Source of the DNA: a virus
Lineage: Duplodnaviria > Heunggongvirae > Uroviricota > Caudoviricetes
Virus record (IMG/VR): IMGVR_UViG_3300026224_000016
Length of the DNA: 9,689 nucleotides
Direction: 5' to 3' (one strand)
The position numbers and the translations under genes are program-made. The notes beneath the pieces are model-generated. The model saw nothing but the letters and a program-made list of their open reading frames with translations. It did not search any database and had not been told where the DNA came from. Positions 2,501-7,020 of this stretch are shown in pieces. Within the stretch, counting starts at the first letter, position 1. Every line of letters starts with the position of its first letter.

Positions 2501-3478
2501 TCACCAGTTGAAGTTCGTTGAACCGTAGTCCTGCTCACTGAATCCCGAGATCGGGAGGCCGGTAGTTCGCCCACCTCCGGGAGCGGCTGGCTGTTGCCAG
2601 GATTCCTCGAAATGGCGATCGGGTCCAAAGAACGTCGCGGCCTGCTTCACGAACTGTGTGCCTGTATTTCCTGTAGCACGTACCCAGGCGGCATACCGCT
2701 TCACACCATCAAGCATGGTCTCCGGTTTTATTCCCTCCCTGATACGGGCTTTCCAGGCTTTGAAGGCTGCTGACTTGGAATTGCCACCAGCACGTTTGGG
2801 ATATTCCTGCCAGGCCTGTTCAAATTCCGGTGAATATTCCTGTCGGGCAGAACGCGCTGGTGCAGACGCGTCAGCGGATGCGCCAATAGTGTTTTTAGTC
2901 TCCGTTGTAATCTCTGTAGTAATCTCTGTATTTGTATCAACATTCGGCGTATCCCCTGTTCCGTTATGACGTTGGGGGGTGTTCCGTTTTAACGTAATAG
3001 CTGTATCGCTGATTGCGTTATTGCTGTTACTTTCTGGCGAAACAGAAGAAGGAGTAGTAATGGCAGCAATTGCCTGTGGGTTGATCCCGACAAACAAAAT
3101 ATTGCTGCATTTCACACCATCGAGCATTTCCACCGTGCGTAAATCCAGGGAAATAAACCCGGCATCACGAAGGCGCTTCAACGCATCCGCGGTTTCCCTT
3201 TTCCCGAAACCAAACTGCTCAGCAAACGCCTGATAACTTCTTTGCAGCTTGTCCCCCTGAAAACGCTTGCGATATCCCAGCAAAGCCCCGGTATGCTCAT
3301 CCCTGACTTCTGTCGGGCGGTACCAGTAAACGATCTCTGAGAGCAGGGCGATAGCGGTCGCATCCGGACGACCACTGGGTAGCCGAATATGTTTCCACCA
3401 GTTCGCTGGTGTGACATTGCCGGAAATATTAATTTGACCAATAGCTATAACTTCCGGTGTGGGGGCGTAACGACTCAT
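2501..3478 (-). CDS. phage replication initiation protein (O-like replisome organiser, 325 aa)
   Basis: Sits immediately upstream of the loader and helicase genes. Two-domain layout with a low-complexity linker (NTEITTEITTETK) encoded by tandem DNA repeats, as in lambda O where ori lies in the linker-coding region. Start ATG 3478 overlaps the upstream stop (ATGA). Family call is from architecture, not a search. Confidence 0.7.
   Translation of the reverse strand: MSRYAPTPEVIAIGQINISGNVTPANWWKHIRLPSGRPDATAIALLSEIVYWYRPTEVRDEHTGALLGYRKRFQGDKLQRSYQAFAEQFGFGKRETADALKRLRDAGFISLDLRTVEMLDGVKCSNILFVGINPQAIAAITTPSSVSPESNSNNAISDTAITLKRNTPQRHNGTGDTPNVDTNTEITTEITTETKNTIGASADASAPARSARQEYSPEFEQAWQEYPKRAGGNSKSAAFKAWKARIREGIKPETMLDGVKRYAAWVRATGNTGTQFVKQAATFFGPDRHFEESWQQPAAPGGGRTTGLPISGFSEQDYGSTNFNW
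2907..2930. repeat. perfect 12-bp tandem direct repeat GTAATCTCTGTA x2 inside the initiator gene; candidate origin iterons
   Basis: Read directly: 2907-2918 and 2919-2930 are identical, followed by a partial third unit (TTTGTATC). A second imperfect repeat pair GTTCCGTTATGACGTT (2958-2973) and GTTCCGTTTTAACGTA (2981-2996) lies just downstream, 13/16 identical. Confidence 0.6.
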
Positions 3479-3774
3479 ACAGCCTCCTTACGCGGCATAA
3501 CAATGGTGTAACCCCGGGCAGGCTGGAGCCGGGCTTTTGCATCAATAGTGAGCGTTGCAATTTTTCGGATACGCAGATACCCTGCCCTTTCCAGGGTCAG
3601 GGTTTCTCTGAACATTGCCTGTTTTGAACAGCAACAAAAATCGGCAAGGACCTGGTGATCAATAACCCTCTCACCTTCACCGTCTGAAGAACCCGACATC
3701 AAAACACGCAACATAATCAGGCGCTGAATCGGATTATCGAAAACACTTCCGCATACAAACTGAAAACAGTTCAC
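3475..3774 (-). CDS. hypothetical protein (99 aa), possible small DNA-binding regulator
   Basis: GTG start at 3774 preceded by SD GGGAGG with a 6-nt spacer. Start overlaps the upstream stop (GTGA) and its stop overlaps the initiator start (ATGA at 3475-3478). A possible helix-turn-helix segment (QVLADF...ERAGYLRIRK) is by eye only. Confidence 0.55.
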   Translation of the reverse strand: MNCFQFVCGSVFDNPIQRLIMLRVLMSGSSDGEGERVIDHQVLADFCCCSKQAMFRETLTLERAGYLRIRKIATLTIDAKARLQPARGYTIVMPRKEAV

Positions 3775-3995
3775 ACGGCACCTCCCAGGCGTTTAAACAT
3801 TTTTCCGGACTGAAACGCCACCAGTGGGTAACTGATGGTGTAGTTACGCCCCAGTAATTCACACACGACTTTCTGGCTTTCGGTACTGACCAGGCAAACC
3901 CGCAGAACATGGCCGTTGCTGGTGGCAAACCACTGCCCCACACGGGGGCAACGGTTGTATCGGTGATACAGGGAATTAACGACGCGGCGAATCAT
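3771..3995 (-). CDS. hypothetical protein (74 aa)
   Basis: ATG at 3995 overlaps the stop of the upstream 220-aa gene (ATGA at 3992-3995), with a GGGAAG SD-like element 7 nt upstream. The track's longer start at 4010 has no SD. No family recognised. Confidence 0.5.
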   Translation of the reverse strand: MIRRVVNSLYHRYNRCPRVGQWFATSNGHVLRVCLVSTESQKVVCELLGRNYTISYPLVAFQSGKMFKRLGGAV

Positions 3996-4654
3996 GGGCG
4001 CACTTCCCATTGATTACGGCGGAAAGCAGTGTGATTCAGGCTGGTTTCAGCCTCATGGAATGCTTCAATGCAGCTCTCGTAGTACCGCATTGTGCGCAGA
4101 CTTAACCCAAGCTGAAGCATCATCAGACCATCAAGGGTGATGTAATAACCACGCAGGGAATCGCCATACACGTGGTAAGTACCCGGAATGAAATTACGGG
4201 AGAAGAATTCACGTGAGCAGTTCAGATACTCGATTTTGTCGACGATGTTCTGGTGCATGCGCTTAAAGTGGCAGGCAACATGCAGGGAGAAAATAACAGC
4301 TTTGCCGTTGACGACTTCGATTTTCAGGTATGGGGAAGTTGGGACTGTAGCCATGATGGCAGCCTCCGTATGCAATGGATAACTTCCACCACCGGAAACG
4401 CCAATTTCACTGGTGGTGAACTGAACGGGGTTGGCGTAACCGGCGCATACGGAAACCGGCGCATCTTTCGATGCCCCCGCCCAGCCCACCATAATCTGGA
4501 TGTGAGCAAATGCGGACGATAAAAAAGACGCTGGCGCGTCGTATATCGCCGTATGCAATTCCAGGACGCCAATCCCGGCACCCGCTTTATAAGGTGCCAG
4601 AACAGTGTAACGTCCCGAAATTGCAGAATCAATATTTAGGCTTGAAACATTCAT
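3992..4654 (-). CDS. hypothetical protein (220 aa)
   Basis: Long ORF with protein-like composition, co-oriented with and coupled into the replication operon. Weak or absent SD upstream of ATG 4654. No motif recognised. Confidence 0.6.
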   Translation of the reverse strand: MNVSSLNIDSAISGRYTVLAPYKAGAGIGVLELHTAIYDAPASFLSSAFAHIQIMVGWAGASKDAPVSVCAGYANPVQFTTSEIGVSGGGSYPLHTEAAIMATVPTSPYLKIEVVNGKAVIFSLHVACHFKRMHQNIVDKIEYLNCSREFFSRNFIPGTYHVYGDSLRGYYITLDGLMMLQLGLSLRTMRYYESCIEAFHEAETSLNHTAFRRNQWEVRP

Positions 4655-4732
4655 ATGCTTACTGGTATTTTTGTTGACGTTCTTGGATTCTTGGGCCTGC
4701 TTTATGCAGTTGCCTGTATCAACGTTGAGCGA

Positions 4733-4757
4733 GCCGGGTTACTACCCGGCTTTTTTT
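4733..4757 (+). terminator. rho-independent terminator-like hairpin, oriented for plus-strand transcripts
   Basis: GC-rich stem GCCGGGT (4733-4739) / ACCCGGC (4744-4750), loop TACT, followed by TTTTTTT (4751-4757). On the minus strand the hairpin is preceded by an A-tract and followed by non-U-rich sequence, so polarity favours the plus strand although it sits right at the Rha gene stop. Confidence 0.5.
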
Positions 4758-5464
4758 CACCGCTGCCAACCAATAACCTGAAATAACCCCATTTTCGGGT
4801 GATACCAGCGAGTCCCTCGCGGTTCTGCTTCCTCCATAACCCGATAAAAAGCAGCCATAAACGGTTCCACAGCAACAATTGCGCGACGTGACAACAATCC
4901 GTCCGGCGTCATGAACTCATGGGTGTCTGTAGGAATTTGATAGGCGTTCACCAGATTGCGGCATTTATCATCTGACAAACCGGTTTTTGCTTTCAGTTGG
5001 CGATATCCGGCATAGCCCTCACGAATGGTGCCCTTTTTGATTTGCTCAACTGTTTCGGCAACATGGCTGACTTTTTCTTCCACCTGAGTGATCCGTTTCT
5101 GCTGGCGAACAGCTTCAAGAGCCATCGCTGCAACCATTTCGATTTCGCTCATTGGCTTACGGATCTGTTCTTCCAGTTCGCGCCAGCGATCTACCAGGCG
5201 AGCAGTGAATTCAGGACAGAGCTGTGCGACGACAATGATGCTGTCGCGCTTACCTTGTTCTCCTTCAAACAGGTAATGCTCATATTGAACTTTAAAACCT
5301 AAGTTATTGATTCTTTCGGAAACCTCAATTTGAGGAGACCGGACAACGCCACCTTTGGCTAATGTTTCAATAGTGCGTTTCACATTGTCATGACGTTTAC
5401 CCACCAGCTCTGCGATTTCAACGCTGGTCATGGATACTTTGTCGTTAAAAATTGCAGCGTTCAT
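4757..5464 (-). CDS. rha: Rha-family phage regulatory protein / antirepressor-like (235 aa)
   Basis: N-terminal segment MTSVEIAELVGKRHDNVKRTIETL matches the characteristic Rha-family N-terminal motif. Start set to ATG 5464 (SD AAAGAGG about 7 nt upstream) rather than the track's 5488. Confidence 0.75.
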   Translation of the reverse strand: MNAAIFNDKVSMTSVEIAELVGKRHDNVKRTIETLAKGGVVRSPQIEVSERINNLGFKVQYEHYLFEGEQGKRDSIIVVAQLCPEFTARLVDRWRELEEQIRKPMSEIEMVAAMALEAVRQQKRITQVEEKVSHVAETVEQIKKGTIREGYAGYRQLKAKTGLSDDKCRNLVNAYQIPTDTHEFMTPDGLLSRRAIVAVEPFMAAFYRVMEEAEPRGTRWYHPKMGLFQVIGWQR

Positions 5465-5635: not shown

Positions 5636-5881
5636 ATGTCAAATACCCAACATCTAAAAGCGGCGGATCCCGTTTTACGCCTCAATGCACTTGAAACGGT
5701 TGTTCGGGCGATGCTGTCGAGCATGACACCCGAGCAAATAAACAAAGCGCGATTGATTGCTACTCGTGGTGCCCAATTAGCAGCCCTAGATCCATTGCTC
5801 ACTCCTGCGAATCGCGAAGATGTAGAGCACATTCAGGGGATGGTTGATTATTTATTCGCCCATATTCCTGATCAGATTTGA
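5636..5881 (+). CDS. hypothetical protein (81 aa), opposite in orientation to the surrounding early operon
   Basis: Near-ideal SD GGAGGA (5625-5630) 5 nt before ATG 5636. Helix-rich, Ala/Leu-rich soluble-looking product. A hairpin GCCGCC/GGCGGC (5914-5936) followed by a T-rich stretch lies about 30 nt after the stop. No family recognised. Confidence 0.5.
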   Translation: MSNTQHLKAADPVLRLNALETVVRAMLSSMTPEQINKARLIATRGAQLAALDPLLTPANREDVEHIQGMVDYLFAHIPDQI

Positions 5882-5962
5882 TTCTTTGAACCATAATTTC
5901 AGCGATACGAATGGCCGCCGCTTCGAGCCTGGCGGCTTCTTTATCTGCATAAGAGCTACCCA

Positions 5963-6208
5963 TCACTTCTCGTCCTCTGTGTGCGCTAAGCTTGGGTGTG
6001 GAAAAAGCTCTGGTAGGTCTGGACGAAATTCATACGCTTGGATCTTTCCGTCGACAGCTGCAACCAATAACGGCACAAATTCTGGTGAAATCTTGTTCTT
6101 GCAGTTCAACCAATCGCAGACTGTTGACTGGGCCTTTCCGCATCGCTTGGCTAAGGCTTGCTGACTTCCAAGAATCTCAATAGCTTTCTCTATGGCTTTA
6201 TGTTTCAT
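5963..6208 (-). CDS. cro: Cro-like HTH transcriptional regulator (81 aa)
   Basis: Small HTH protein (GSQQALAKRCGKAQSTVCDWLN) transcribed divergently from the cI-like repressor. Start set to ATG 6208 with SD AGGAGA 7 nt upstream; the track's start at 6259 would lie upstream of the predicted promoter. Confidence 0.75.
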   Translation of the reverse strand: MKHKAIEKAIEILGSQQALAKRCGKAQSTVCDWLNCKNKISPEFVPLLVAAVDGKIQAYEFRPDLPELFPHPSLAHTEDEK

Positions 6209-6327: not shown

Positions 6328-7020
6328 ATGACATTTTCAGAACGACTTGATTTAGCTATGCGCAACGCAAAATTTACGCAAGGTAGGCTGGCCAAAGAAG
6401 TGGGTATGGCTCAGTCCAGTGTCAATCAACTACTTAACAAAGCCAACGGTTCCAGAAAAACAGTCGAAATAGCAAAAGTTTTGGGCGTTAACCCGGAATG
6501 GCTCGCATCGGGTGTTGGCCCAATGGAAATCGTGACCTCTGCAGACTCACACCAAATACGTAACATTTCTGAAGATTGGGTTACTGATTCGTATGTCGTG
6601 GATGTTTTAGACATCAGATATAGTTGCGGACCTGGTAGTTATAACTCTGATTTTCCTGACATTGTCAGATCTATAGCGATAGAACCAGGATACGCATCAA
6701 GAGTTTTTGGCGGCAGGCCAGCATCAGCAATCAAAGCAATAAACGCCCACGGCGACAGTATGAAAGGCACAATAGACCCTGAAGACTTGGTATTTGTAGA
6801 TGTATCAGTTCGCACATTTAATGGTGATGGTATATACGCCTTTACATACTCTGGAACATCGCACATCAAAAGACTTCAAAAAATCAAAGATACTCTAACG
6901 GTGATATCTGACAACCCAGCTTACAAGGATTGGGCTATCGAACCGGAAGACTTCGAACAACTTCACATTGACGGAAAAGTAATTGTCAGTTGGCCCATGA
7001 CACTACACCGTTTTGCATAA
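6328..7020 (+). CDS. cI: CI-like prophage repressor: N-terminal XRE-type HTH plus C-terminal LexA/S24 autopeptidase domain (230 aa)
   Basis: HTH FTQGRLAKEVGMAQSSVNQLLN. S24 catalytic signatures: Ser in AHGDSMKG and Lys in HIKRLQK. SD GGAGG 9 nt before ATG 6328. Divergent from cro. Confidence 0.9.
   Translation: MTFSERLDLAMRNAKFTQGRLAKEVGMAQSSVNQLLNKANGSRKTVEIAKVLGVNPEWLASGVGPMEIVTSADSHQIRNISEDWVTDSYVVDVLDIRYSCGPGSYNSDFPDIVRSIAIEPGYASRVFGGRPASAIKAINAHGDSMKGTIDPEDLVFVDVSVRTFNGDGIYAFTYSGTSHIKRLQKIKDTLTVISDNPAYKDWAIEPEDFEQLHIDGKVIVSWPMTLHRFA

Follow-up and report, generated by a model that had tools for sequence, protein, structure and literature searches.

A putative P4-type antisense-RNA switch and three coupled small genes ahead of the replication genes of a lambdoid Escherichia coli prophage

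What do three short, overlapping open reading frames (ORFs) that run directly into a replication initiator gene contribute to the control of a lambdoid prophage? This question is raised by positions 3475-4654 of IMG/VR virus record IMGVR_UViG_3300026224_000016, a 9,689-nucleotide stretch of DNA that is referred to as the window at its full length. A sequence-only reading of this DNA had described three uncharacterised genes, of 220, 74 and 99 codons, chained into the initiator gene by overlapping stop and start codons. The coordinates of this chain are exact, and its overlaps are conserved in relatives. The 220-codon ORF belongs to known families, and its 5' half contains two known regulatory RNAs, C4 and isrK, which the sequence-only reading had missed. 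With a probability of roughly two in three, the span holds an antisense-RNA switch of the P4 type, acting in immunity and anti-termination, together with three translationally coupled small genes that relay its decision to the replication genes. The chain consists of the following genes.

3992-4654, minus strand: the long ORF (ORF1), 220 codons, annotated as 'ash family protein', an analogue of P4 eta with an open frame
3771-3995, minus strand: ORF2, 74 amino acids, with its ATG at 3995, ATGA-coupled to the Rha gene
3475-3774, minus strand: ORF3, 99 amino acids, with a GTG start at 3774, the first gene of the replication module
2501-3478, minus strand: initiator-like gene, 325 amino acids, at the downstream end of the coupled chain, matching phrog_270 (replication initiation protein, E = 5e-75)

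The RNA module within the long ORF

The product of the long ORF matches Pfam Ash (PF10554) over residues 16-108 with 64.9 bits against a gathering threshold of 26 (57.6 bits for the N-terminal half alone), a Rha domain over residues 111-210, and phrog_995 (E = 1e-95). The Ash match coincides with isrK, C4 and their target sites. The long ORF starts upstream of an internal promoter-like block and reads in frame across isrK, C4 and the target sites and on into the Rha part. The elements within it are listed below.

4604-4632, minus strand: promoter-like block, analogue of P_isrK and of P4 P_LE, with a -35 element TTGATT (4632-4627), a 17-nucleotide spacer and a -10 element TACACT (4609-4604)
4521-4597, minus strand: isrK or P4 seqA-like RNA, Rfam RF01394, 61.8 bits over the full length (gathering threshold 50 bits), with a Rho-independent terminator
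4409-4496, minus strand: C4 or P4 CI-type antisense RNA, Rfam RF01695, 80.5 bits, E = 5e-15, model positions 1-87 of 87 (gathering threshold 45 bits)
4363-4404, minus strand: downstream target, analogue of P4 seqC and P1 a2-b2, with b2 at 4404-4398 and a2 at 4373-4366
3992-4354, minus strand: nested Rha-domain gene, 120 amino acids, with its ATG at 4354-4352, in the position of P4 kil and Gifsy-1 anrP

The promoter-like block lies inside the long ORF, 3' of its ATG, with a predicted +1 at 4597. Its sequence, TATTGATTCTGCAATTTCGGGACGTTACACTGT, is almost invariant in about 54 haplotypes, and both flanks vary freely; with 8 of 12 consensus matches it stays under the threshold of a generic promoter scan. 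The isrK terminator, a putatively leaky hairpin at 4540-4527 followed by a U-run, was independently picked up by a generic terminator scan, and isrK carries the target sites b1 (4572-4566) and a1 (4556-4549). The Rfam c4-a1b1 model reaches 22 bits, below its threshold of 46.7; the isrK model fits instead. C4 presents the loop a' (4452-4445) and the single-stranded segment b' (4437-4431), and a tRNA-like CACCA motif is visible at its 3' end. An in-frame AUG (M55, 4492-4490) lies in its 5' end and matches the start position of Gifsy-1 orf45. The a2 site overlaps the Shine–Dalgarno (SD) sequence GGAGG (4367-4363) of the nested start ATG 4354.

Base pairing was examined in an alignment of 21 diverse sequences including P4, ST64B and the Shiga toxin (Stx) phage 2851; an alignment of the region as a whole is too mosaic for use. 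Explicit loop–target tests were used in place of RNAduplex on whole segments, which gives over-extended, uninformative duplexes. The C4 stems show compensatory double changes at 14 of 27 pairs, with 100% of cells paired. In the local hairpins, 98.2% of cells are paired, compared to 35-47% when the partners are slid, and 18 pairs have changed on both sides. The pairing of a1/b1 with C4 is kept in 96.4% of cells (31-53% slid) and that of a2/b2 with C4 in 94.4% (28-38% slid), and in each case 13 of 15 pairs have changed on both sides. Nine types of a' and eight types of b' occur among the relatives, in 17 combinations. Cognate loop–target pairs are fully complementary in 16/17, 16/17, 12/17 and 14/17 of these haplotypes, and none of the approximately 245 non-cognate pairs is.

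The two halves of the long ORF differ in the level at which they are selected. Among 61 ungapped distinct relatives taken from viral contigs, the variable sites of the first 300 nucleotides number 69/67/65 at codon positions 1/2/3, and the ratio of nonsynonymous to synonymous polymorphism (pN/pS) is 0.84, with 0.78 and 0.93 in the other frames. In the last 360 nucleotides the variable sites number 39/32/74, and pN/pS is 0.17 in frame and about 1.5 out of frame. These observations indicate that protein-level selection begins at the internal ATG at 4354-4352. The Ash half does not behave as a protein domain, showing neither codon periodicity nor selection at the amino acid level. Of the three ORFs, ORF2 and ORF3 are real coding genes; in ORF1 only the 3' 360 nucleotides look protein-coding, and the 5' 300 nucleotides are RNA genes. 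Scanned alone, the nested 120-amino-acid product matches Pfam Phage_pRha (PF09669) with 30.7 bits against a cut-off of 29.9 and the Rha-like phrog_518 (E = 9e-14), and scores 37.8 with TIGR02681, for which the cut-off is 45.95. The strong SD and the ATG at 4354 are invariant in the relatives.

It is highly improbable that the span consists of three ordinary protein genes, the first of which encodes a two-domain Ash–Rha transcription regulator with incidental Rfam matches. The Pfam Ash score, PHROG 'transcriptional regulator' matches over the N-terminal half, the 'ash family protein' call by the Prokaryotic Genome Annotation Pipeline (PGAP) and the always open frame agree with such a protein. 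However, pN/pS of the N-terminal half is about 0.8-0.9 in all frames, and both the RNA structure and the loop–target covariation are strong. Moreover, the founding Ash member is the obsolete 'cI protein' ORF of P4 lying over the CI RNA. Phage 2851 carries the same isrK–C4 pair before antA, with stops in all frames, indicating that the RNA module does not need an ORF. The Pfam Ash family is flagged here as largely a translation of conserved RNA.

The frame through the RNA module is nevertheless kept open. Relatives were retrieved through the Rha half only, so that the N-terminal half was not selected for, giving 67 distinct sequences, and stops were counted directly in each frame; a single-substitution 'potential stop' test was set aside for its misregistered divergent sequences and ungapped consensus. 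In 67/67 sequences, at least 104 codons ahead of ATG 4354 can be read without a stop. Over 300 nucleotides frame 0 has no stop in any of them, compared to 22 and 29 different positions of polymorphic stops in the other two frames. Every sub-region contributes such positions, also the one that precedes the RNA start. Nearly all relatives have an in-frame ATG ahead of the promoter block, and some arrangements couple it to the preceding gene by an overlap with the stop codon of that gene (ATGA). These features, together with the precedent of P4 eta, make it unlikely that the 5' half is purely non-coding, that the 220-amino-acid ORF is an annotation artefact and that only the 120-amino-acid protein is made, even though the lack of codon periodicity, the lack of an SD at ATG 4654 and the non-coding version in other phages all point that way. 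The anatomy of the module, its predicted RNA structures, co-varying targets, nested starts, open frame and conserved coupling can thus be read from the compared sequences.

Comparison with P4, P1 and Gifsy-1

The order of elements is the same as in P4, where a long ORF beginning upstream of an internal promoter spans isrK/seqA and C4/CI and a nested ORF, with the replication genes of the epsilon-alpha operon downstream. In the P4 record, the 'cI gene product (AA 1-137)' is a Pfam Ash member over the C4 match, and an isrK match lies just upstream. Extension of the cI coding sequence yields a 199-codon ORF (eta) that covers both RNAs and begins with an ATG overlapping the stop of the gene before it. 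P4 eta has the nested start motif EAAIMAT, and the window reads HTEAAIMATV; in both, the nested ORF starts at this motif just after the downstream target. The nested P4 ORF has 65 amino acids, which is also the length that Kil reportedly has in its original description. The window differs from P4 in several respects. The element that hosts it is a lambdoid prophage of E. coli, in which the CI is LexA-like, the Cro is of the YdaS type and the replication genes are of the O/DnaC/DnaB type; the nested product is a 120-amino-acid Rha-domain protein rather than the 65-amino-acid Kil, with similarity to Kil limited to the first residues; and ORF2 and ORF3 are additional coupled genes. As relayed in PMC10111431, Forti et al. 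(1999) describe Kil as a truncated form translated on read-through, and full-length Eta as a product of the upstream promoter only, whose translation prevents termination; the P4 mechanism is also summarised in PMC4825925. As to the use of PF10554 in P4, a published survey of P4 satellites took this family as a marker of epsilon. In P4 (1389-1676, 1669-2085), epsilon matches PF25738 (Derepression) and not PF10554, which instead matches the obsolete cI/eta ORF over the CI RNA.

The immI locus of P1/P7 (c4, icd, ant) likewise produces a C4-family RNA from the same transcript as its target. There, as predicted for the window, a' and b' pair with upstream a1, b1 and downstream a2, b2, the downstream site occludes the ribosome-binding site, and a few loop bases set the specificity. 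The regulated genes of the window are those for the Rha-domain protein, the small barrel protein and the replication module, not icd-ant. Elsewhere, the isrK and C4 pair has been reported beside Bro/Rha/Ant genes in APSE phages and in phage-inducible chromosomal islands. The phiP27 gene L16 is a homologue of ORF1 with 93% DNA identity, of the same family and in the same position. In Stx 'Eru' phages and phiP27-like prophages, 'Rha/Ash' genes lie beside the immunity region, as here (bioRxiv 10.1101/2021.11.24.469858); in that preprint, Ash figures as a protein domain whose function is not known, whereas the present analysis places it over the RNA module.

We infer the regulatory logic by homology with P4, P1 and Gifsy-1. 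In the lysogen, transcripts from the internal promoter would be untranslated, and most of them would end at the IsrK terminator or be processed into C4 RNA. C4 would pair with a2/b2 and occlude the ribosome-binding site at 4367-4354, thereby blocking translation of the nested gene, and the untranslated RNA would then be terminated, probably by Rho-type polarity, before ORF2, ORF3 and the genes for the initiator, the helicase loader, the helicase and Q. Once the prophage is induced, RNA that begins at the early promoter further upstream would carry ATG 4654, and ribosomes would traverse the RNA module in its always-open frame. Their passage would prevent hairpin formation and antisense pairing and so render the coupled chain insensitive to C4. 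Such a P4-type switch offers a concrete model, open to testing, in which RNA exerts a second layer of control over replication, and it would explain the heteroimmunity-like specificity types. Through Q further downstream, this layer would also reach the late genes, including those for Shiga toxin in related phages.

Several observations weigh against this model. The long ORF of the window is not coupled to the upstream gene, from which ATG 4654 is separated by a 100-nucleotide gap with no recognisable SD, unlike in P4 and phiP27-type relatives. ORF3 and the initiator gene have strong SDs of their own and, if transcribed, could be translated independently. Covariation is blind to whether the pairing is intramolecular or in trans. 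Finally, the short IsrK RNA of Gifsy-1, a structural homologue of P4 seqA, activates translation (Hershko-Shalev et al. 2016, PMC4825925), and the sign of regulation could therefore differ from that in P4.

The Gifsy-1 locus isrK-orf45-anrP contains an IsrK with a leaky terminator and a processed C4-like RNA (STnc1160) under a translated small frame (PMC4825925). This frame is conserved in nucleotides, not amino acids, and is coupled into an antirepressor-like gene. If the window worked in the same way, the leader would be silent, with IsrK paired to the C4 region, and the short IsrK RNA would open it in trans; the module would then serve as a stress-responsive activator of the Rha protein and the genes that follow it, in place of a repressor in immunity. 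The RNA pair and its order are indeed those of isrK-orf45-anrP. The in-frame AUG at 4492 is nucleotide 106 of the transcript, compared to nucleotide 107 for the orf45 AUG, and the nested ATG sits at the position where orf45 ends. The covarying b1/b' pairing is the helix tested in Gifsy-1, to which the compensatory mutants G28A/C162U and G31A/C159U map. However, the orf45-equivalent frame of the window continues in frame into the next gene and reaches back beyond the promoter, and replication genes, not isrJ, lie downstream. In addition, the direct overlap between a2 and the SD of the nested start is that of P1/P4 repression, and a long ORF that begins upstream of the promoter and avoids stops is the design of P4 eta. 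A Gifsy-1-type logic is therefore rather unlikely to account for the module, although it is compatible with the P4-type logic and the two are not mutually exclusive.

The coupled chain, ORF2 and ORF3

The P4-type switch would act on genes that are tightly joined. Each of the 220-, 74- and 99-amino-acid ORFs has a single, terminal stop, and three overlaps of 4 nucleotides each connect ORF1 to ORF2 (ATGA, 3992-3995), ORF2 to ORF3 (GTGA, 3771-3774) and ORF3 to the initiator gene (ATGA, 3475-3478). The ATGA between the Rha gene and ORF2 is kept in 75/75 relatives, and the PGAP annotation of a 96% identical E. coli prophage gives the same four genes with identical 4-nucleotide overlaps, followed by the Q antiterminator. 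The conservation of the overlaps in relatives exceeds chance. The initiator gene is followed by genes for a DnaC-like loader and a DnaB-like helicase, and at least 61 of 77 related loci have a DnaC-like gene further downstream. From the RNA module to the replication genes, a generic promoter scan found no consensus-like minus-strand promoter, in keeping with gating of the latter.

The junctions themselves show a pattern. A linker GGGARGTGC-NNN-RTGA, consisting of an SD and the overlapping start, is shared by the 3' ends of the Rha gene (3995-4010) and ORF2 (3774-3790), and the start ATGATTCGCC (MIR...) is common to ORF2 and the long ORFs of tandem modules. The shared linker and start suggest a putative exchange of cassettes at conserved junctions. 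The ORF2 stop overlaps the next start with several differing downstream genes.

None of the three products resembles lambda CII, as had been noted by eye: scans of Pfam, PHROGs and NCBIfam give no CII-family match for ORF1-3, and the same scans give no family match that would support a YdaT-type or NinB-like identity. A PDB sequence search with all three products returned nothing meaningful, and the PADLOC anti-phage defence profiles do not match them.

ORF2 is the one member of the chain that is still uncharacterised. Its pN/pS of 0.21 and an excess of third-position changes mark it as a real coding gene; it occurs in E. coli prophages only and always accompanies the Rha gene. The fold consists of an N-terminal helix and a five-stranded Tudor/KOW/SH3-like barrel, and ORF2 is thus a module-specific small barrel protein. 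It was compared with DUF4222 (PF13973), with which it has only the general small-barrel fold class in common; there is no Pfam match, and BLASTP against the DUF4222 neighbour of ORF3 in Salmonella is empty. In the reference phage phiP27, a 218-nucleotide gap in the annotation lies between L16 and L17 (5004-5222). A tblastn search finds an ORF2 homologue there, which appears to be unannotated.

ORF3 is a strongly constrained, real coding gene (pN/pS 0.08, with third-position excess). Homologues with 60-65% identity are found in Enterobacter, Klebsiella, Salmonella, Serratia and Yersinia, and identities over the Enterobacterales as a whole range from 55 to 65%. ORF3 is known from prophages only, since tblastn of 50,697 phage genomes gave no match. 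The AlphaFold2 model has a predicted local distance difference test score of 83 and a winged helix-turn-helix (HTH) topology. The top Foldseek matches are the N-domains of RepA_N initiators (4pql/4pt7/5kbj), at marginal levels (E-values of 6e-3 to 1e-2, template modelling score about 0.55), and generic MarR-type winged HTH proteins rank after them. In PHROGs, ORF3 matches the N-terminal part of phrog_4617 (E = 1e-27) and phrog_391 (E = 0.02). A near-invariant FCCCS(K/R)Q motif is found in ORF3 and all its homologues at residues 46-50 (window 3625-3640), at the start of the predicted recognition helix; a run of three cysteines is unusual for a winged-helix protein.

The neighbourhood of ORF3 ties it to replication. 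The gene upstream is cro in Enterobacter prophages and the DUF4222 gene in Salmonella, and whatever lies upstream, the ORF3 homologues of these genera overlap a 300-335-amino-acid initiator-like gene by 4 nucleotides. ORF3 is present in only 14 of 77 Rha-module loci, which places a mosaic joint between ORF2 and ORF3. It belongs to the replication module, where it most likely assists the initiator as a DNA-binding protein. ORF3 is not a free-standing novelty; it is a winged-helix protein that is conserved in the Enterobacterales as a partner of the initiator gene. The initiators that accompany ORF3 share either the N- or the C-domain with that of the window. The window's initiator is itself a domain mosaic, with an N-domain 54% identical to a Salmonella protein and a C-domain 59% identical to an Enterobacter protein. 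The possibility that ORF3 is a paralogue of the initiator N-domain was rejected (hhalign probability below 1% against two initiators).

Could ORF3 be a CII-like lysogeny regulator instead of a replication accessory? In lambda, cII occupies the place between cro and the initiator, and the proposed analogy with this position applies to ORF3 in Enterobacter prophages, where it lies directly after a cro-like gene, and not otherwise. A protein of about 100 amino acids with an HTH would also suit such a role, and the co-occurrence with initiators that differ in either domain shows that ORF3 is not tied to one of them. However, ORF3 gives no match to a CII-family hidden Markov model, its predicted winged helix and best structural matches point to RepA_N initiator N-domains, and PHROGs groups it with the N-terminus of 'replication initiation' proteins. 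The 4-nucleotide overlap with the initiator start is always kept, and an 11-nucleotide direct repeat (3772-3762, 3749-3739), which is a candidate binding site at the 5' end, is not kept in the Enterobacter and Salmonella homologues. A CII-like function of ORF3 is accordingly doubtful.

Distribution and surrounding early region

Of 5426 complete E. coli genomes, 1353 have prophages that match the stretch, as do many Stx phages and phiP27, and its first gene routinely bears the label 'ash family protein'. The span adds a member to the P4/P1/Gifsy-1 family of antisense-RNA switches, in a lambdoid prophage and ahead of its replication module. Beyond the switch, it encodes two further proteins: ORF2, which is small and truly uncharacterised, and ORF3, a conserved winged-helix protein associated with the initiator.

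Two or three isrK–C4–Rha modules stand in tandem in some prophages (five viral contigs). Every module comes with a conserved promoter block of its own, the a/b loops differ in specificity between modules, and the next long ORF begins with an ATGA over the stop of the preceding Rha gene. Tentatively, and with the odds somewhat against it, the modules may form, across the population of lambdoid and Stx prophages of E. coli, a layer of immunity apart from CI/Cro that consists of combinatorial RNA 'locks'; the 'Ash domain' would then be no protein domain. At least nine a-loop and at least eight b-loop specificities may then assort freely, and two or three modules with different keys may stand in series in some prophages. 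If so, each lock would gate the replication genes and Q, and the frame would be kept open only for ribosome override from the induced early promoter. In phage 2851, a match to sRNA-Xcc1 (79 bits, 4935-5018) lies directly upstream of a second antirepressor gene, antB.

The window covers the early region of the prophage. A LexA/S24-type repressor gene lies on the plus strand (6328-7020), followed on the minus strand by genes for a YdaS-type Cro and a 243-amino-acid Rha/Ant-like protein, the three ORFs, and the initiator, DnaC-like and DnaB-like genes. The gap between the 243-amino-acid Rha gene and ATG 4654 contains a plus-strand site (4642-4760) with a promoter-like TTGAAA-18-TATTTT (4642-4671) and a strong intrinsic terminator (4731-4752 and a T-run), which would yield a predicted plus-strand RNA of about 80 nucleotides, antisense to read-through of the early operon. 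The terminator hairpin is conserved in most relatives, and the sequence from the hairpin to the ATG occurs in at least three unrelated variants; Rfam matches to this site are weak and sub-threshold.

Between the cro-like and Rha genes lies an 81-amino-acid plus-strand ORF (5636-5881) with a plus-strand terminator (5917-5936). In an E. coli prophage of near-identical sequence its annotation is 'bssS family protein', and it resembles a moron that was inserted into the early operon in antisense orientation. A 55-amino-acid minus-strand ORF (5799-5966), which has no match in the family scans, overlaps the stop of the cro-like gene with its GTG start (GTGA, 5963-5966). Direct repeats are found in the linker-coding part of the initiator gene (2801-3072): a 12-nucleotide-spaced repeat at 2904-2934 encodes TEITTEITTE, and further repeats lie at 2957-2972/2980-2995 and 2801-2815/2834-2848. 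These repeats are possible iterons or a possible origin, as in lambda O.

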